Shown one piece after another: positions 3,269 through 59,186 of a DNA stretch of 59,835 nt (position 1 is its first letter; each line of letters begins with the position of its first letter). A program made the translations under genes and the position numbers. The notes below the pieces were generated by a model. That model had not been told where the DNA came from. It saw only the letters and a program-made list of their open reading frames with translations, and searched no databases. The stretch is taken from the sequence record PZ445421.1; one strand, written 5' to 3'. Source of the stretch: a phage.

Positions 3269-4147
3269 ATGAACAAATATCACATTCATCTAGCGGTAGC
3301 TTATTCCGCTGGCTTCTTCCAGTCTATGCCTCGTTTTGGTGCATTGGAACTTGAATATACTTCTGAAGATGAAATCCCGGAAAACGCGCGTGAGTATTAT
3401 TCCCAAGAAGGCGATAAGTGGATCCTCACTGGTGTAAAGGGTGGTGGCAAACAGAATATTGACAGGTTGCAATCTGCACTTGAAAAAGAACGCAACGATC
3501 ATAAAGCGGTCAAGAGTAAGCTAAGTAAGCTGAACGGACGTGATATTGACGAACTCTTGCAGCGCGACGCTGAATATGAAGAGCTTAAACTGCGTGCGGA
3601 TAAAGTTGATGATGAAAAGTTGGAGCAAATCATTAACGTACGAATCCGTAACAAGTTAACTCCGCTTGAGCGTGAACGTGACGAGCTGAAAAACAAACTT
3701 TCTACCTATGAGAAGCAAGTAGAAGAGCTGACCACAAAAGAGAAGAACCGCATCGTTAAGACCGCTCTTAGCAAGGCTGCAATGTCTGCTAAAGTGATCA
3801 CGGAAGCTATTGACGACGTGGAACTGATTGGTTCTCGTTTGTTTGAGCTCACCGAAGACGGTCAGGTTGTGACACGCGACGGTGTGGGCGTAACTCCTGG
3901 CATCACTCCAGAAATGTGGTTACAGGACATTCAAGATAAGAAACCTCACTGGTTCCCTGGAAACGTTGGCGGTGGTGCTGGTGGCTCGCGTACTCCTGGC
4001 GCTGCTGGTAAGAACCCGTGGAGTGCCGACGGTTGGAACCTTACTGAGCAGGGTAAAATTCTTCGTGAAAATCCTGAAAAAGCAGGCCGTTTGGCAGCCA
4101 TGGCTGGTGTGGACTTGAAGCGTCCAGTACGTCCAGTTAAAAAATAA
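3269..4147 (+). CDS. putative head scaffolding protein
   Basis: Track ORF 3242..4147 begins at GTG; internal ATG at 3269 has SD 'GGAG'; long charged coiled-coil-like central region and Gly-rich C-terminus, positioned between portal and major capsid genes. Confidence 0.5.
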   Translation: MNKYHIHLAVAYSAGFFQSMPRFGALELEYTSEDEIPENAREYYSQEGDKWILTGVKGGGKQNIDRLQSALEKERNDHKAVKSKLSKLNGRDIDELLQRDAEYEELKLRADKVDDEKLEQIINVRIRNKLTPLERERDELKNKLSTYEKQVEELTTKEKNRIVKTALSKAAMSAKVITEAIDDVELIGSRLFELTEDGQVVTRDGVGVTPGITPEMWLQDIQDKKPHWFPGNVGGGAGGSRTPGAAGKNPWSADGWNLTEQGKILRENPEKAGRLAAMAGVDLKRPVRPVKK

Positions 4148-15271: not shown

Positions 15272-18049
15272 ATGCCACCAGCAATAATTGGAGCCGTAGT
15301 TGCTATCGGGGCAGCGGCTGGGGCAGCGGCAGGTATTATCACAGCCACTACCGCGCTTGTGATTGGTATTGCTGCCAGTGCCGCTGGAGCTCTACTTACA
15401 AAGACTCAAAGTTTCAACTTTGATTCCTACACACCTCAGAGCGAACGTAAGCAGGTTATTCGTGCCGCTGCTGCATCTAGAACTGTGATTTATGGGACAA
15501 CTGTGTCCAGTGGTGTTCTTGTATTTGCGGAAGAGGAACCAGGAGTACAGGAACCAGATAAACATGGCGAGAACCATGAAAAGTTGACGTTGGTTCTTGC
15601 ATTAGCCGGACACGAACTAACAGAAGTAGGACAAGTGTGGTTAGGGGATGATGCTATCGAAAGTTTTGGTGATAAAGCGTCATATGTAATACATAACAAT
15701 CCTACTACCGTTAGTCGAGATATGCTGAATCGTTGCCCATCATGGAAAAGTGACATGATTGGTAAAGGTATTTGCTGGATGCAATTAAACCTTGTGTTCG
15801 ATTCTGAAAAATTCCCTTCTGGCCTACCTAACGTTAAATGCCTTAAGAAAGGTCGTAAAGTATTAGATCCTAGAACTGGTAATATGATATTTAGCAATAA
15901 CGCAGCTTTAGTCATTCTGGATTACTTGCGAGTGTACTTAAAGCGTTCTGATGATGCAATTCTTTGGGACCAGTTCAAGGAAGCTGCTAATATATGTGAT
16001 GAAAGTGTGAAGAACGCGGACAACACATTTGAACCTCGTTACACCATAAATGGTGAGTTCGATATTGACGAAGCTTCATCTAAGATCCTGGAGGATATGC
16101 TTGACTCTTGTGGTGGGGAGTTAACTTATATTGGCGGTAAACATGGTTTATTAGTTGGTGCTTATTACGGTCCACCTGAACTAACACTTGACACAAGTTG
16201 TATTGCTGGTGATATTAAAATCACACCTGAAACAGCTTTTAAAGAACGCACCAATACAATCACAGGTACTTATATAGATCCTTTGCAGAACTATCAGGAG
16301 GCAGACTTTCCTCCTGTAAGCGTTGCGGAATGGATAAAACAAGACGGGCAAGAAATCACACAAGACGTAGACTATCGTTTTGTAACAAGCCCATATCAGG
16401 CACAACGTTTGTCTAACTTAACATTGAAACGCAAACGCATTGGTCGTTCCATCGAGATACCATGTAACATGCGTGGGTATCGTTTCCGTCCAGGAATGTA
16501 TGTTTACGTTGACATTCCTAATATTGGAATGAACAAAGTAGAGATGCGTGTCATTAAGTGGCAGTTTGATCCGAAAGGTGGTGTCACTGTAACTGTACGC
16601 CAAGACTTCCCGGACTTATGGGACGATGCAATTGGCAAACCTGTAGAGCGACCAGATCTAGTGGATTTACCTACTGGTGGCGCTATGCAACCTCAGAACC
16701 TACAATATGAAGTCTTACAAATTAGCGACGTTGTACAGGGTGTTCTGTCGTGGCAAAATATAATGGCTGTAGCCTACAACAACGTAGTAATTAAGAAAGA
16801 TGGTACTACCGTATTGACGGTGCAAGTACCGGGCCAGAGCACGCGGATTACGGGGCTTATTCGCGGCGCTTATACAGCACATGTGAAAGCTGTGGCGTAT
16901 ACCGGCGCAACAAGTCCAGAAGCATATCTTGAATTTAACATTCAAGCACCTTCCGCTCCCACATCTGTTGAAGTAAAACAAGGCTACTTTGCAGTGACAC
17001 TGAAACCAAAATCTGCAGATCTAGCGAACGTTAGTACACAATATGATTTCTGGACGTCCGGTGAAACAAGACTACCATCCACCGCTGTAGACGTGGTAGA
17101 GAGACAAGCCACCCGTGCTGGTATGGGTACAACGTGGACTTCAGAAGGGTTACTTAATGACCACACTTATTACTGGTACGTGCGAGCAATCAATGCTTTT
17201 GGTTCTTCTTCATTTGTAGAGGTGGCTGCAAGATGCTTCACAGATGCTGCTGGCCTTATTCCGCAGATTGACACAGAGTTCAAAGGTACTAACACCTATA
17301 AAGAACTTATGGCTGAGATTGGAAGCGTCAGTGATGGTGTTAAGAGTTATGTGGACGACCAAATTGAGACCTCTGAAGGGCGCTTAACTCAAACAATAGA
17401 TACAGTGCAACAATCTGTAGTTCTTGTTGACGGTAAAGTGCAGCAACAAGGCGTCACAATTAATAAACAGGGGCAGTTAATAGATGCTCAAGGTAAGTTA
17501 ATCGAGACAAACGGCCGACAAATTAATGTGGTCAAAGCTACCGTACAGGAAGTCAGTAAGTCCGTTGTAGATCTTGAAGGTAAAGTCAACGCTCAGTGGG
17601 GCGCCAAGATCCAGGTGGATAGTAAAGGACAGAAATATGTTGCTGGTATTCAGTTAGGTATGGAAGGTTCCGGTGGAGCTATCCAATCTTACTTTATGGT
17701 CAACGCCAACAACTTTGCTATCTATAACCCAACTAACAGCACAGCGGATTTAGCATTTGCAGTTAAGAACGGTCAAGTGTTTATGAAGGCGACGTTCATT
17801 GAGAACGGGTCTATTGATAATGCCAAAATCGGCAACTATATCCAGTCCAACAACTATGCAGCTGGTTCTGCTGGCTGGAGGATTACCAAGGACGGAGCTT
17901 CGGAGTTTAATAATGTTATCGTCAGAGGTGAGATATATGCAGCGGTTGGCAAATTCGGATTCAACGGAAATGGAGGTATAACAATCAATAGCAACGGGAT
18001 TACGGTTCCATTGTCAGGTGGTGGTAAAGTTGTAGTTGGTAGATGGTAA
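15272..18049 (+). CDS. tail tip / host-specificity protein (J-like) with fibronectin-III-like region
   Basis: 925 aa; Gly/Ala-rich hydrophobic N-terminus; '...YYWYVRAINAFGSS...' FN3-like segment; SD 'GGAGGG'. Confidence 0.7.
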   Translation: MPPAIIGAVVAIGAAAGAAAGIITATTALVIGIAASAAGALLTKTQSFNFDSYTPQSERKQVIRAAAASRTVIYGTTVSSGVLVFAEEEPGVQEPDKHGENHEKLTLVLALAGHELTEVGQVWLGDDAIESFGDKASYVIHNNPTTVSRDMLNRCPSWKSDMIGKGICWMQLNLVFDSEKFPSGLPNVKCLKKGRKVLDPRTGNMIFSNNAALVILDYLRVYLKRSDDAILWDQFKEAANICDESVKNADNTFEPRYTINGEFDIDEASSKILEDMLDSCGGELTYIGGKHGLLVGAYYGPPELTLDTSCIAGDIKITPETAFKERTNTITGTYIDPLQNYQEADFPPVSVAEWIKQDGQEITQDVDYRFVTSPYQAQRLSNLTLKRKRIGRSIEIPCNMRGYRFRPGMYVYVDIPNIGMNKVEMRVIKWQFDPKGGVTVTVRQDFPDLWDDAIGKPVERPDLVDLPTGGAMQPQNLQYEVLQISDVVQGVLSWQNIMAVAYNNVVIKKDGTTVLTVQVPGQSTRITGLIRGAYTAHVKAVAYTGATSPEAYLEFNIQAPSAPTSVEVKQGYFAVTLKPKSADLANVSTQYDFWTSGETRLPSTAVDVVERQATRAGMGTTWTSEGLLNDHTYYWYVRAINAFGSSSFVEVAARCFTDAAGLIPQIDTEFKGTNTYKELMAEIGSVSDGVKSYVDDQIETSEGRLTQTIDTVQQSVVLVDGKVQQQGVTINKQGQLIDAQGKLIETNGRQINVVKATVQEVSKSVVDLEGKVNAQWGAKIQVDSKGQKYVAGIQLGMEGSGGAIQSYFMVNANNFAIYNPTNSTADLAFAVKNGQVFMKATFIENGSIDNAKIGNYIQSNNYAAGSAGWRITKDGASEFNNVIVRGEIYAAVGKFGFNGNGGITINSNGITVPLSGGGKVVVGRW

Positions 18050-18050
18050 A

Positions 18051-18072
18051 TTAAGGGGCGAAAGCCCCTTAA
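18051..18072. terminator. bidirectional hairpin between convergent genes
   Basis: TTAAGGGGC-gaaa-GCCCCTTAA; overlaps the stop of the minus-strand gene; weak U-tracts on both strands. Confidence 0.45.
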
Positions 18073-19034
18073 TACATATTGGGTAGTGCAATAATAGGTG
18101 TTGGGGTAACAATGTTTCTTTCAGGTGGTCGTAGTGAGGGGGAATGAAAGTTCCCTATTACCTTATTTCTTTCAGCTCGTACTTTATTTCCATACATACG
18201 AACGCCATTATATCTTACATTGTCATAACCACCATTATAAACGTTCTTCATTCCATAGAAAGCAAGTTGAATTAATCTGTCACCAATATCCTGATCACTT
18301 GTTGTTAAAGTTAGAGTTTTATCAAATAAGAACGGTTTCTTTACTGTGGAGAATGTAACTTGCCCAGCGGTATTAGTCATGGTAATACCGTCACCTGCTG
18401 CTGGTGGGGTATTATTAAATATTACCAGTTCCATTGTTACACTGGCAGCAACATCATCCCTACCAGTGTAGGTGATGTCCCGAACTATAATGTTAGTTCC
18501 ATCAAAGCCAACAGAAACGTTAGCAGAGTTCCATCTTGCAAAAGGAATGCCTGATACTGGAAGTCGCATACTTCCGTTAACTGTAACAGTACCAGCATAC
18601 TGACAAGTCATTAATTTTGCATTATTTGAAATAGCTGTAAAATCCGTAGAGTTTGACACATACAGACCTGTGTTATATGTAGAAGCAGGTAATACTTCCA
18701 TAATAGAGCCTGCCCATTGTGGAAGTTTTCCAGTATATCCAAAAGGATTAGCACCCCTTAAAATAACACCAGAGTTACCATTCCTGCTGATAGAGGAGAT
18801 ATAGAAAGGTGCAGGGACTACAAGACCCTGATCGTATACTTCGATAATTTCAACAGGTTTAGTAGGGATCACAAAAACTTCAGAGGCTTGTGTGAGGGTT
18901 GTATTAATTGTTAAAGTTTGATCAGACTGGCAACGCTGATTAAAGTTAGCACAAAAAGATAAAGCTCGCAATCCTGCTGTTATTTGCATTGCAGGTCTTC
19001 CGTCATTGTAGTTTATGTAAATACCCTCAGGCAT
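18069..19034 (-). CDS. hypothetical protein, reverse-oriented inside tail module (candidate receptor-binding/host-range protein)
   Basis: Track ORF starts at GTG 19040; ATG 19034 has SD 'GGAG'; Asn/Thr/Gly/Ser-rich, no signal peptide; own AT-rich upstream region 19035-19150. Confidence 0.6.
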   Translation of the reverse strand: MPEGIYINYNDGRPAMQITAGLRALSFCANFNQRCQSDQTLTINTTLTQASEVFVIPTKPVEIIEVYDQGLVVPAPFYISSISRNGNSGVILRGANPFGYTGKLPQWAGSIMEVLPASTYNTGLYVSNSTDFTAISNNAKLMTCQYAGTVTVNGSMRLPVSGIPFARWNSANVSVGFDGTNIIVRDITYTGRDDVAASVTMELVIFNNTPPAAGDGITMTNTAGQVTFSTVKKPFLFDKTLTLTTSDQDIGDRLIQLAFYGMKNVYNGGYDNVRYNGVRMYGNKVRAERNKVIGNFHSPSLRPPERNIVTPTPIIALPNMY

Positions 19035-42959: not shown

Positions 42960-42983
42960 CCAAAAAATAGAGGTACACAAGTA

Positions 42984-42994
42984 CCCCCCCCCCC
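42984..42994. repeat. homopolymer C11 (G11 on the minus strand)
   Basis: Read directly: gtaCCCCCCCCCCCgaaagc. Confidence 0.9.
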
Positions 42995-54809: not shown

Positions 54810-55097
54810 ATGTTCGTTCTGGCTTTCAATAGTGCAATATGGCTAGGTATCAACTGGATCCTTGCAATTATATTAGGTCTTGTGATCTGGTATGTACCGT
54901 TTATGCGTTACGCTGTTATCATTTCGCTTGTATATTTAGTTGTTAAACATTTCTTCGTATGGTGCGTATGCAATCCACAAGCTGCAAACATCAAACGTAA
55001 GAAAGCGAACTTCTTTAGTGTGCTTATTTTAGGTTCACTGATTGTGTACGCATGGTTGCTTGGTGCGCAGAACTTAGGTTGGTTCACGTTGCCTTAA
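54810..55097 (+). CDS. small multi-pass membrane protein (95 aa)
   Basis: Three hydrophobic segments; strong SD 'GAGAGGAG'; first gene of the rightward block after the iteron region. Confidence 0.55.
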   Translation: MFVLAFNSAIWLGINWILAIILGLVIWYVPFMRYAVIISLVYLVVKHFFVWCVCNPQAANIKRKKANFFSVLILGSLIVYAWLLGAQNLGWFTLP

Positions 55098-55182
55098 TGT
55101 GGTCACTAATTGTTGCGGCCGGCTATGTTAATCAACTTGCGTATCCTGTTATAGTTATTCCGTTAACGTTAAAGGGGTTTAT

Positions 55183-55548
55183 ATGAACGAGAATATAGTT
55201 AAAGCCTGGTCTATCTTACGACCACAGCTGAAAGACGATCGTGTCGCTTTTGTTTTATGTCCGAGCAATGAGTATCGCCGGAAGCTCGAAGAAGTGTTGC
55301 GCGAAGATCCTGAGTTCGTTCGCTGTGTACAACTGTCGCGCGAGTCATCTGTGGTGCAGTTTGATCGTTTCCATCTTCGTTTGGTTTCTCATCGCAGAGA
55401 CTCGTATGAAGACACTGTTATTCGTACGAGTGGCTTCCATTGTGATATTGCCATTCTTGACTGCGAATTAAGTATTGAGCAGAAACAAGACTTATATAAT
55501 CTTGCTCGTGAACGTCATGGTGAACTGTTAATTGTGGAAGTGCAATAA
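55183..55548 (+). CDS. hypothetical protein
   Basis: 121-aa ORF. Confidence 0.5.
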   Translation: MNENIVKAWSILRPQLKDDRVAFVLCPSNEYRRKLEEVLREDPEFVRCVQLSRESSVVQFDRFHLRLVSHRRDSYEDTVIRTSGFHCDIAILDCELSIEQKQDLYNLARERHGELLIVEVQ

Positions 55549-55886
55549 TGGCCAAAGATATCGTTATTCCGAAAATGTATTGTCAGCTCCGTGATACTTT
55601 ATTACAAAGCGGTTGGATTATTAGTCATACCGATGTGAATGATACTTATATTGTTCTTATACCACCTGAAGGAACGATATCCTGCATTTTGCACTACATG
55701 CCCGAAGCGAAGACGGTTTATCCGAACGGGTCATTCCTGCTTCGTTTGCGCTCTGATACATGGAAGATCCAGACGGATACCTGTGCAATTGACGAGAATA
55801 CCAGTAAAGAGTTTATTCGCAAGCTGACTCAGCTGAATAAAATCTACGAGCATGTTAAATTTGATTTGTTTAAGGAAGTGTTCTAA
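55548..55886 (+). CDS. hypothetical protein
   Basis: 112-aa ORF, ATG overlaps upstream stop. Confidence 0.5.
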   Translation: MAKDIVIPKMYCQLRDTLLQSGWIISHTDVNDTYIVLIPPEGTISCILHYMPEAKTVYPNGSFLLRLRSDTWKIQTDTCAIDENTSKEFIRKLTQLNKIYEHVKFDLFKEVF

Positions 55887-56326
55887 TGATTACTATCAAC
55901 GATCCAATCAAGCATAAAACTCAGAAAAGCATAATGGCTTGCATCCCTACCTGCCTTGCTATGCTTCTTGACAAAGACCCTGAGCAGGTATATGACGAGT
56001 TCACGAAGGATTATATTCGTGGTTTTACTGACGTGTCGAACTATCTGTATAAGCACGGTGTCTTTGCGCAGCCGCATATCACTGCCGGTATGCACCAGAT
56101 CCGACCTGGGCGCTTGTATCTTGCGACTGTACCCTCTTTGCAGTTACCTGGACTTTTCCATCAGATCATTATTGACGCTCGCTTCGGTGATGTTAAGGTA
56201 TACGACCCATGTAAAGGTCTGCAAGGGAAACAATACTATTCCTATGACCACATTGCAGAGGGTAATGATCTGGCGTATCCTCTGCGGTCTTTCCTGATCG
56301 ATTATGAAATTATATTGCCGGGGTGA
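55886..56326 (+). CDS. papain-fold cysteine peptidase, C39-like
   Basis: 'Q-x5-CIPTCLAM' resembles the C39 'Q...CGxAxLxM' Cys block; downstream 'HQIIID...DP' resembles the His...Asp-Pro block. Confidence 0.45.
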   Translation: MITINDPIKHKTQKSIMACIPTCLAMLLDKDPEQVYDEFTKDYIRGFTDVSNYLYKHGVFAQPHITAGMHQIRPGRLYLATVPSLQLPGLFHQIIIDARFGDVKVYDPCKGLQGKQYYSYDHIAEGNDLAYPLRSFLIDYEIILPG

Positions 56327-56329
56327 TTT

Positions 56330-56683
56330 ATGGGCTTGCAACGTTTTGACAATGCAGAACTCGCGTGTGAATTTGCAAAGCGCAAGTTTGCTAAAACAGG
56401 TACGCCGCGATGTGTACATGCGGCTATTGGGCAAAATGGGGCAAAGTATTGGTACGTTGGTACAGTAGCTCAGATTAAGCGAAGATTCGCGACTACGCCC
56501 GAAATGCGCCGGCTTGGGTCCCCTACACTTGTGCGAAACAGGCAGTTGGATAAAGAGGAAATTTATCGATTTCTTAGGAATTACACTGGTAAAGAGAATA
56601 GATTTCAGGTTGCAGCGAAAGAGTTTAATATCGGTCTTTCCACTGCTTATAAAATTTATCACATATATGGGCGTTTAATATGA
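56330..56683 (+). CDS. hypothetical protein
   Basis: 117-aa ORF. Confidence 0.5.
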   Translation: MGLQRFDNAELACEFAKRKFAKTGTPRCVHAAIGQNGAKYWYVGTVAQIKRRFATTPEMRRLGSPTLVRNRQLDKEEIYRFLRNYTGKENRFQVAAKEFNIGLSTAYKIYHIYGRLI

Positions 56684-57174
56684 CCGCAATTGCTTATCGT
56701 AATGGTATATTGGCTGTAGATCGTCAGGTTACATGGGGTAATATTGCAACAACTACAGATAAAGTTCACACTGTCAATATTCCAGGAATTGGACTTTGTC
56801 TTGTTGCGATGTCTGGTAAATTACGTGCTGTAGAAGACATTGTAGAGCATCTCAAAACTACGGTTCGTGGACGTAAAGAACCTTTCTCGGATTTAATTCC
56901 AGATTCCCGTTATGGTATTGCGGTGACACAAGATCTTGTTGTGTATCCTATCTACGGGGATGGTAAATTAGGTCTACCGGACACTAATGAATTTATTGCG
57001 GAAGGTAGCGCGTTTGAGTTCCTGATGGGTGCAATGGCGGGAGGTTGCACCGCTGAAGAGGCAGTACGACTGGCGTGCGTATATTGCGACAGTTGTGGTC
57101 AAGGGGTTAAGTTCTATGACGTAGCCTACACTCTTAAAGTGGCGCAGTGTAAAATCGAGGAGAAACCATTTTGA
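56680..57174 (+). CDS. Ntn-hydrolase of the HslV/proteasome beta type (candidate)
   Basis: N-terminal 'MTAIAYRNGILAVDRQVTWGN' (Thr-2) and C-terminal 'AEGSAFEFLMGAMAGG...' follow the HslV pattern. Confidence 0.45.
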   Translation: MTAIAYRNGILAVDRQVTWGNIATTTDKVHTVNIPGIGLCLVAMSGKLRAVEDIVEHLKTTVRGRKEPFSDLIPDSRYGIAVTQDLVVYPIYGDGKLGLPDTNEFIAEGSAFEFLMGAMAGGCTAEEAVRLACVYCDSCGQGVKFYDVAYTLKVAQCKIEEKPF

Positions 57175-57362
57175 AGAAACCTAAGACTGGTCTGTTCCTT
57201 TGTGTTGGTGGACCTTTTGACGGTAAGCGTATACGCTTAACAACATCAGATTTGTATCCAAGTTCCTCCGTTTTCTCTGTTCCATCTTATAAAAACGGTG
57301 AGAAGGGGAAATACGTCTGCAATGATGAAATTCGAAACAGTGTAATCTGGAGAACATCGTGA
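57171..57362 (+). CDS. hypothetical protein
   Basis: 63-aa ORF. Confidence 0.4.
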   Translation: MKKPKTGLFLCVGGPFDGKRIRLTTSDLYPSSSVFSVPSYKNGEKGKYVCNDEIRNSVIWRTS

Positions 57363-57586
57363 GCGATACTACAAATGCGCAATTAGCCGCTGCAAGAGTG
57401 TATATGCGCGGAGCTGCCGCTGAGATTGATGCTTTGCCTCAATTTGAAAAGCATGTACAGCAACTTGAACATAAATTTAAGGCTCTTAAAGACTTAGGAG
57501 ATAAGAAGGACGCCATAGCCTTTCTTCTTGCTATCCAATACTTGTCTATGGGGGTTGGTGACAAAGTATGTTCCTTAGAAGAATAA
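57359..57586 (+). CDS. hypothetical protein
   Basis: 75-aa ORF, GTG start with SD 'GGAGA'. Confidence 0.4.
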   Translation: MSDTTNAQLAAARVYMRGAAAEIDALPQFEKHVQQLEHKFKALKDLGDKKDAIAFLLAIQYLSMGVGDKVCSLEE

Positions 57587-58068
57587 TTGGTATTGTTGCA
57601 CCTTGGATACCACTTGTCATAATTGTTATTCTAGCCAACTGGGCTTATGACAATGCCATAGAATCAGCTAGAAAGGAGGGTTTCGATGCCGGTGTGTCGT
57701 ACCAAAAAGAAACTCAGAAAGCGGTTGATTTCGAGGAGGAGAAACGGAGAGCGTATGAGAAAGACACTATCGAACGTCAGTACAGATCTCGTATTGAATC
57801 TTTGGTTGCCGATCTTAATAATTATCGTGCTACTAATGACAGGTTGCACAACGAAATCGCAACCGTCCGTAAGTACCTCGGTGACGCTACCGGCCCTCAG
57901 CCCGACAGCAAGACAACCGCCCAGATCGCCCGTGTGCTCACCGAGCTGTATTCAGAAAGCGTCACAGAATACAGACAAGTGGCAGAAGAGGCTGAAAAGT
58001 ATCGTATTGCCGGCGAGCAGTGCGAACTACAATATGATGCAATGCGAAATCCGCGTAAACAAAATTGA
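57568..58068 (+). CDS. i-spanin (Rz-like)
   Basis: N-terminal TM segment then helical periplasmic domain, Cys near C-terminus; overall pattern like lambda Rz; contains an embedded +1-frame lipoprotein ORF. Confidence 0.65.
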   Translation: MFLRRIIGIVAPWIPLVIIVILANWAYDNAIESARKEGFDAGVSYQKETQKAVDFEEEKRRAYEKDTIERQYRSRIESLVADLNNYRATNDRLHNEIATVRKYLGDATGPQPDSKTTAQIARVLTELYSESVTEYRQVAEEAEKYRIAGEQCELQYDAMRNPRKQN

Positions 58069-58099
58069 TAAACTGCAAAGTCCTTGCCGGGTTGCGTAA
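57755..58099 (+). CDS. o-spanin (Rz1-like lipoprotein), embedded in +1 frame
   Basis: Lipobox-like 'LLMTGC' followed by Pro-rich sequence; start could instead be ATG 57686 (strong SD). Confidence 0.5.
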   Translation: MRKTLSNVSTDLVLNLWLPILIIIVLLMTGCTTKSQPSVSTSVTLPALSPTARQPPRSPVCSPSCIQKASQNTDKWQKRLKSIVLPASSANYNMMQCEIRVNKIDKLQSPCRVA

Positions 58100-58190
58100 C
58101 TAAACGTTCAATCTTAATTGCACATAATTGATTGTGTACATGTGATAATTCAACTATGCTCTATTCGGTTTAACTGAATGGAGCTTTTTT

Positions 58191-58625
58191 ATGACTGTGC
58201 AACCACGAGGCATTCGGAATAACAATCCGGGAAATATTCGTTGGGGTGATAATTGGAAAGGTCTTGTTCCTGAAGACAAACGGACTGACCGTTCTTTCTG
58301 TCAATTTATCGATGTAAAATACGGTATTCGCGCTATTGTGCGTATTCTACTAAACTACCGCAACCGCGAAGGAATGAAAGGTGTCGGAAATAAAGGAATT
58401 GACACTGTACGGGAGATTATTTCGCGCTGGGCTCCGCCGAATGAAAATAACACTGAAGCCTATATTCAATCTGTGTCTAAGGCTTGTGGTGTTGGTGCAG
58501 AACAGCCGATTTCATTGACCGATGATAAAATCATGCTTGCAATCGTGAAAGCGATTATCAAACATGAGAACGGTGTGCAACCTTATTCTGATGAAGTTTT
58601 GCTCGCGGGTATTCACATGGCATAG
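58191..58625 (+). CDS. putative endolysin (by position only)
   Basis: 144-aa soluble protein between spanins and holin; no catalytic motif recognised. Confidence 0.3.
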   Translation: MTVQPRGIRNNNPGNIRWGDNWKGLVPEDKRTDRSFCQFIDVKYGIRAIVRILLNYRNREGMKGVGNKGIDTVREIISRWAPPNENNTEAYIQSVSKACGVGAEQPISLTDDKIMLAIVKAIIKHENGVQPYSDEVLLAGIHMA

Positions 58626-58638
58626 TAAGAGGTTATAA

Positions 58639-58947
58639 GTGTCGCCGAACTGGGATTGGAATATAGTTTTTATTCTCACTGCCATTGCGATGGTAGGGGG
58701 TTCCCTTGGCTACGCTGCAAGAACCCATGATGCTAAAGAAAAGTTCAGACTCAGTGTCTTCATTCAAGAGGGTGCTTTTTCTGCATTCTTTGGTTTCTTG
58801 ATAGGTGTAATTAACGTGGAACAAGGTGTCTCACTGGGGCTCAGTGGGGCGTTCATAGGCGTGTTATCTTGGTCCGGTTCAAGAACCATGCTAAAGTTTC
58901 TACGGAGAAAGACAGAAGCATGTGACCGAGAAAAGGAAAGAGGTTGA
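58639..58947 (+). CDS. holin (three-TM, class I-like)
   Basis: GTG start with SD 'AAGAGG'; three hydrophobic segments and a charged C-terminus. Confidence 0.55.
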   Translation: MSPNWDWNIVFILTAIAMVGGSLGYAARTHDAKEKFRLSVFIQEGAFSAFFGFLIGVINVEQGVSLGLSGAFIGVLSWSGSRTMLKFLRRKTEACDREKERG

Positions 58948-59186
58948 TTATGCGTCACTTCATCAATGATCTTCTTATATTGTGTAAGAAACCGCGATTG
59001 CTTTTCATCTATATGATGATTGGACTTGCACAAATTGGAGTTAGTGCTATCGCCATTGATCAGATGCACAAGAAACACAGGGCAAACCTGCAACTTTCGC
59101 CACCACCTGTTTATGTGGTCAATAAGGTTGAACAAATCAAACAAGACATTCGGGAGATAACGTACATTCCTAAAGTTGACATGTAG
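58944..59186 (+). CDS. small membrane protein (possible antiholin/lysis regulator)
   Basis: 80 aa with one TM segment, coupled to holin. Confidence 0.4.
   Translation: MIMRHFINDLLILCKKPRLLFIYMMIGLAQIGVSAIAIDQMHKKHRANLQLSPPPVYVVNKVEQIKQDIREITYIPKVDM

Follow-up and report, generated by a model that had tools for sequence, protein, structure and literature searches.

Fuchs, Alva and Lupas defined 22 new proteasome homologues in 2021 (PMC8665760). One of them, PPH, comprises proteins of ~140 residues from Caudovirales and prophages, which have no propeptide and are placed in group I together with HslV and the betaproteobacterial proteasome homologue BPH (PMC8665760). In total, 324 PPH-family sequences were reported in 2021. 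Helix H2 is missing in only three homologues, namely PPH, its relative RPC and connectase (PMC8665760). BPH features all four helices, a long acidic pore loop and double heptameric rings, connectase is devoid of both H1 and H2 and has an inserted pair of helices that covers its active site, and Anbu is characterized by a long C-terminal helix (PMC8665760). For HslV, the C-terminal tails of HslU bind to inter-subunit pockets involving Phe54, Phe57, Ala79, Lys80 and Gln114 (PMC6429459). Full-text literature searches yielded no experimental study of a PPH or HslV-like protein from phages; what they returned was the bioinformatic description of 2021 and genome papers remarking on 'HslV but no HslU'.

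The gene bas20_0085 of Escherichia phage FritzHoffmann (Bas20) belongs to this group. By homology, its product is a compact HslV/proteasome-like threonine peptidase of the PPH family with predicted activity, an assignment made through the features described for the family, the published representative of which is WP_042125023.1 (KEGG OC.1434257). Such an identification is already known, the PPH family having been described in 2021 (PMC8665760) and orthologues having been named in RefSeq, and it adds little by itself; the interest lies in the function of viral proteasome homologues.

Gene, family and fold

Megablast of positions 55000-59000 revealed a 100% match to Bas20 (MZ501068.1; Queuovirinae, Nonagvirus), with relatives at 92-96% identity including JenK1, 9g, JenP1/2, SE1 and BRET. 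The window, referring to the whole 59,835-nucleotide stretch of DNA analysed, is MZ501068.1 rotated to begin at the large terminase gene. The sole difference found between the two is an intergenic poly-C run at ~42983-42993, with 11 C in the window and 10 in MZ501068.1.

The coding sequence of the PPH-family proteasome/HslV-like Ntn hydrolase occupies positions 56680-57174 on the plus strand and comprises 164 codons, starting with ATG at 56680 and ending with the stop TGA at 57172-57174. The 164-aa protein begins with MTAIAYRNG and is identical to bas20_0085 of MZ501068.1, where it is labelled 'hypothetical protein'. No earlier start codon lies between the preceding in-frame stop and the ATG at 56680, which makes an N-terminal extension impossible and leaves no room for a propeptide. 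Pairwise Nei-Gojobori dN/dS values among eight Nonagvirus orthologues lie at 0.04-0.19; bas20_0085 is therefore a constrained protein-coding gene under strong purifying selection and no chance ORF. In the record of phage 9g (KJ419279.1 / NC_024146.1), the orthologue at 30245-30735 matches in two pieces over 491 nt instead of 492, which suggests a frameshift, be it an error of sequencing or the mark of a pseudogene.

The orthologues of JenK1, 9g, JenP1/2 and SE1, with identities of up to 97%, are named 'peptidase HslV family' in RefSeq, and one GenBank record names an orthologue 'proteasome subunit alpha type-2'. In PHROGs, bas20_0085 matches PHROG 1040 (phrog_1040), 'peptidase HslV family', with an E value of 7.5e-36. 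Searched as a single sequence, the protein found no match in Pfam even at E<=10 (PF00227 Proteasome was not reached) and none in NCBIfam at E<=1 (the HslV model NF003964 was not reached). Scans of bas20_0085 and four distant relatives against Pfam, NCBIfam and PADLOC returned no significant family, by which a recognised defence-system component or a curated HslV was rejected as an identity. Single-sequence phmmer against the PDB gave noise, with FtsY at E 1.6, and profiles were required to see the homology. A profile of 121 family sequences matched T. maritima HslV with E 1.8e-8, along with dozens of other chains from HslV, BPH and beta subunits. Alignment of the family profile with E. coli HslV by hhalign reached a probability of 96% and E 3.7e-9, pairing family-profile residues 1-143 with HslV residues 1-172 end to end; the published numbering of Phe54, Phe57, Ala79 and Lys80 (PMC6429459) fits the HslV sequence used here.

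The AlphaFold2 (AF2) model of bas20_0085, calculated from a 17-sequence alignment, has a pLDDT of 92.8 and a pTM of 0.87. It displays the alpha-beta-beta-alpha Ntn-hydrolase fold of the proteasome-beta type, and its top Foldseek matches in the PDB are solely HslV, BPH, Anbu and 20S subunits. The initial annotation had read the protein as an HslV/proteasome-beta-like Ntn hydrolase whose N- and C-terminal blocks follow HslV. The first part is supported by the fold, the homology and the catalytic Thr/Asp/Lys described below, and the second agrees with the end-to-end alignment. The accompanying statement that proteasome-type peptidases are uncommon in phages does not hold, as a profile search of 1.84 billion representatives (50%-identity clusters) matched 6,359 proteins at E<=1e-3, of which 1,993 reached E<=1e-10, and a large PPH family had already been described (PMC8665760). 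Nearly all of these matches are 140-165 aa long and align from residue 1, the median of the collected relatives being 152 aa, and the identity of bas20_0085 to mainstream family members is 26-36%. Some relatives carry precomputed PF00227 matches, and JGI names some of them HslV. A 263-aa profile match and a 287-aa product from one locus resemble the RPC relatives with C-terminal extensions.

Active site, helix H2 and the HslU pocket

Six residues, M1, T2, D14, K28, G46 and G109, are invariant in the 17-sequence alignment. Thr2 (codon ACC, 56683..56685, plus strand) aligns with HslV Thr1 and is the predicted N-terminal nucleophile after removal of Met1, as had been proposed from the sequence at the outset; the Met-Thr start is found in 164 of the 176 collected family proteins, and in bas20_0085 it has no possible start upstream. 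Asp14 (GAT, 56719..56721, plus strand) and Lys28 (AAA, 56761..56763, plus strand) correspond in hhalign to proteasome/HslV Asp17 and Lys33, and are kept in 160/162 and 161/162 of the MT-starting relatives, respectively. Lys28 is invariant in both family alignments, A1 and A2, and Asp14 in A1. The alignments thereby place in bas20_0085 the Thr/Asp/Lys catalytic triad of the proteasome/HslV superfamily (MEROPS T1-type).

Alignments and column counts cover two more segments, namely Ala43-Met44-Ser45-Gly46 (56806..56817, plus strand), with which the strand preceding helix H1 ends, and the Gly109-Ser110 pair (57004..57009, plus strand), which corresponds to the G-S of HslV Gly123-Ser124 (proteasome Gly128-Ser129). 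Gly109 is kept in 161/162 members, and position 110 is Ser in 95 (59%) and Ala in 33 of the 162. Gly46 pairs with HslV Gly48 and is Gly in 161/162 members. The oxyanion-hole glycine (proteasome Gly47, HslV Gly45) pairs with Ala43 in three independent alignments, and family position 43 is occupied by Ala in 80 and Gly in 65 of the 162 members, Val being found as well. An alanine at this position departs from the statement that Gly47 is common to all homologues (PMC8665760). Judged from the alignments, Ala43 is not the textbook oxyanion arrangement, yet catalysis may still proceed, because the oxyanion hole is formed by a backbone NH.

In the AF2 model, a helix at residues 48-58 (H1) is followed by a loop at 59-76, a strand at 77-83 and helices at 112-120 and 125-135. 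The helix H2 of HslV and proteasome beta subunits is absent, its place being taken by the loop after H1, and a matching gap appears in hhalign; H1, H3, H4 and the beta core are kept. The protein is a compact single domain of 164 aa with neither propeptide nor extra domains, and the family comes from tailed phages and prophages, as evidenced by the Nonagvirus genomes, 97 confirmed IMG/VR loci and an Aminobacter prophage. The likeness to PPH accordingly covers the Met-Thr start, the Thr/Asp/Lys triad, the lack of H2, the occurrence in tailed phages and prophages of proteobacteria and the proximity to HslV and BPH. In contrast to the typical ~140 aa of PPH, bas20_0085 has 164 aa, and the Nonagvirus clade differs by a small hairpin insertion (residues 34-39) and an extra C-terminal helix (148-160). 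Neither the long C-terminal helix of Anbu nor the two-helix insertion of connectase is present in the model. With respect to the pore loop and rings of BPH, bas20_0085 is known here from its sequence and a monomer model.

In structure and profile searches alike, HslV matches best, sharing the alpha-beta-beta-alpha Ntn fold, the MT start and the equivalents of Asp17, Lys33 and G-S. However, the identity is 16-19%, H2 is deleted, the H3-H4 connection is shorter, the HslU-pocket residues are not conserved, no hslU lies adjacent, and the NCBIfam/Pfam thresholds are missed. At the five pocket positions, hhalign places Glu52, Val55, a gap, a gap and Leu98 of bas20_0085, on account of which canonical docking to the host HslU appears unlikely. 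Judged by model and alignment, bas20_0085 is not an HslV orthologue, with H2 and the HslU-pocket residues missing, which qualifies the HslV likeness noted initially. The remark that a partner ATPase is not obvious proved apt. No AAA+ unfoldase is annotated in Bas20, and searches with E. coli HslU by tblastn, blastp and phmmer against the window and the neighbours of 79 loci gave matches of Walker-A length at most.

Genomic context

Immediately upstream of the PPH gene lies a 117-aa gene of phrog_17085 (56330..56683, plus strand), the stop codon of which overlaps the PPH start in an ATGA motif, an arrangement that suggests translational coupling. In Klebsiella phage vB_Kpn2-P2 the orthologue of this gene bears the label 'late transcriptional activator', which Pfam, NCBIfam and PDB sequence searches did not support. 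Downstream, two small plus-strand ORFs at 57171-57362 (63 aa, phrog_12090) and 57359-57586 (75 aa, phrog_19774) separate PPH from the spanins; the TTG start codon of the former overlaps the stop of PPH. The lysis cassette follows on the same strand at 57568..58947, as defined by the GenBank annotation of MZ501068.1 and the ORFs, with the i-spanin (57568-58068), the embedded o-spanin (57755-58099), the endolysin (58191-58625) and the holin (58639-58947), which agrees with the placement of the gene just upstream of the lysis genes by the initial annotation. A strong terminator-like hairpin on the plus strand (58158-58184), comprising a 12-bp stem and then a T run, is located between o-spanin and endolysin. 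The lysis genes could thereby be transcribed as two units, the upstream one of which would contain PPH and the spanins. A promoter scan gave the background level (13 found versus 12.5 expected), and gene order alone would place bas20_0085 among the late genes. The plus-strand scaffolding protein gene (3269-4147; phrog_206, E 2e-50) lies between the portal and major capsid protein genes. No prohead protease is annotated in Bas20 or JenK1, both of which have a scaffolding protein. The presence of this protein, together with the lack of an annotated prohead protease, leaves room for a morphogenetic role of PPH in Bas20.

The context across the family was sampled in 80 IMG/VR loci, 79 of them usable, with crude ORF calls and neighbours clustered all-against-all. 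No conserved partner gene emerged, the best neighbour cluster being present in 15/79 loci. A PHROGs scan of the 150 nearest same-strand neighbours, from ~38 of 52 dereplicated loci, identified terminase large subunit, portal and head-tail adaptors as the commonest neighbour families, with the terminase small subunit recurring. In T7-like contigs the order is portal-scaffold-PPH and then more structural-module ORFs, and in an Aminobacter sp. prophage (GCA_009674635.1, 5753-13540) it is TerS-TerL-PPH-144 aa-P22-type portal-capsid. In Edwardsiella phage PEi21, PPH (gp32, 18013-18489) forms part of a group of small minus-strand genes that interrupts the tail module, and the phage encodes a canonical head maturation protease (gp11) besides PPH. 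Only in Nonagvirus-like phages does PPH lie next to lysis genes, an arrangement kept down to 55% PPH identity (Klebsiella phage vB_Kpn2-P2). PPH behaves like a movable accessory gene, not like a core gene of replication or morphogenesis, and its preferred insertion sites are within or next to late operons for head and packaging functions. With spanin, endolysin and holin adjacency thus confined, a specific link of PPH to lysis was rejected, and the view of PPH as a general prohead protease was downgraded on account of the two proteins in PEi21.

Proposed function and alternative explanations

The reading that we consider probable is that bas20_0085 acts as a stand-alone N-terminal-threonine peptidase, a minimal Ntn hydrolase of the proteasome-beta/HslV type with a late accessory function. 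The protein would be made from the rightward gene block that leads into the lysis, terminase and head genes. Met1 would then be removed by the host methionine aminopeptidase, as a Thr in second position permits Met removal and E. coli HslV, which also starts with MT, is processed alike. The free alpha-amino group and the hydroxyl of Thr would serve as base and nucleophile on the peptide bond, assisted by Lys28 and Asp14. With no unfoldase gene in the phage and no conservation of the pocket in which HslU docks, the enzyme would work without a dedicated unfoldase. The analogy to HslV, BPH and Anbu makes it probable that the protein self-assembles into a homo-oligomer acting on unfolded or specific protein substrates, and rings sequestering the active sites would be expected from the characterized group I relatives.

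Since HslV is the closest match and the E. coli host encodes HslU, bas20_0085 could instead be a functional HslV substitute, which docks on the host HslU (ClpY) hexamer to give a hybrid ATP-dependent protease redirected to phage-chosen targets. The lack of an ATPase partner in Bas20 itself and the weak activity of isolated HslV without HslU (PMC6429459) would fit such an arrangement. It is nevertheless unlikely, because Ala79 and Lys80, two of the five residues lining the HslU pocket, belong to the deleted H2 (PMC8665760 and the model), the remaining three are not conserved, and the protein is only 16-19% identical to HslV and below the HslV/Proteasome thresholds of NCBIfam and Pfam. The missing pocket also counts against a catalytically dead mimic that disturbs the host HslVU, be it that HslU is sequestered or that the rings of HslV are poisoned. 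Such a mimic could accommodate the incomplete conservation of the oxyanion-glycine and Ser129 equivalents, but hundreds of diverged sequences keep Asp14, Lys28 and the N-terminal Thr almost without exception, which is hard to explain without catalysis, making it the least credible explanation. It is also quite improbable that the protein is no general peptidase but an enzyme with this fold that acts as a monomer and with sequence specificity, either a connectase-like ligase/transpeptidase or an amidohydrolase on a non-protein substrate.

A capsid-associated protease, belonging to the head module and serving in scaffold removal or head-protein trimming, or packaged and injected with the DNA, would account for the terminase, portal and adaptor genes being the commonest same-strand neighbours, for the position of PPH between scaffold and capsid genes in the T7-like contigs and between TerL and portal in the Aminobacter prophage, and for the scaffold-bearing Bas20 and JenK1 having no annotated prohead protease. 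Phages with a separate scaffold, such as P22, T7 and SPP1, however, commonly need no protease. PEi21 possesses gp11 in addition to a PPH in an opposite-strand islet, the position of PPH relative to portal, scaffold and capsid genes is variable, the gene calls in the metagenomic loci are crude ORF calls, and in Bas20 the gene lies ~3 kb from the head genes with the lysis genes in between, so that a head-module protease is very unlikely.

A gene that is so common in phages, with an intact triad, no unfoldase and a frequent location close to genes for head and packaging, presumably has an important task. The roles put forward in the initial annotation, degradation of host defence or regulatory proteins or processing of phage proteins, would be candidates for it. 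A bolder and rather doubtful proposal is that PPH represents a widespread, unfoldase-independent viral 'mini-proteasome', co-expressed with late head and packaging genes and fulfilling a specific role in infection that is new for phage proteases. As such, it may be a threonine protease, packaged in the capsid or acting late, whose target for destruction is a regulatory or defence protein of the host, or it may remove scaffold in phages without a classical prohead protease. Bas20, which belongs to the BASEL collection and grows on E. coli K-12, would be well suited to identifying, for the first time, what a viral proteasome homologue cleaves.

In Nonagvirus-like phages, PPH might act jointly with a second enzyme. 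Two genes upstream of PPH (55886..56326, plus strand), a 146-aa protein of phrog_4049 is encoded, which is a probable papain-like cysteine peptidase (clan CA, C39-like) and, from sequence and model, the probable second peptidase of the PPH gene block. Its Gln13, Cys19, His92 and Asp97/107 are invariant, and its AF2 model has a pLDDT of 92.3. The best Foldseek matches in the PDB, at a weak E of ~3e-3, are Josephin-2, AvrPphB, the PCAT1 C39 domain and a double-glycine protease. The phrog_4049 gene is syntenic with PPH in Nonagvirus-like phages, down to ~52-55% identity.
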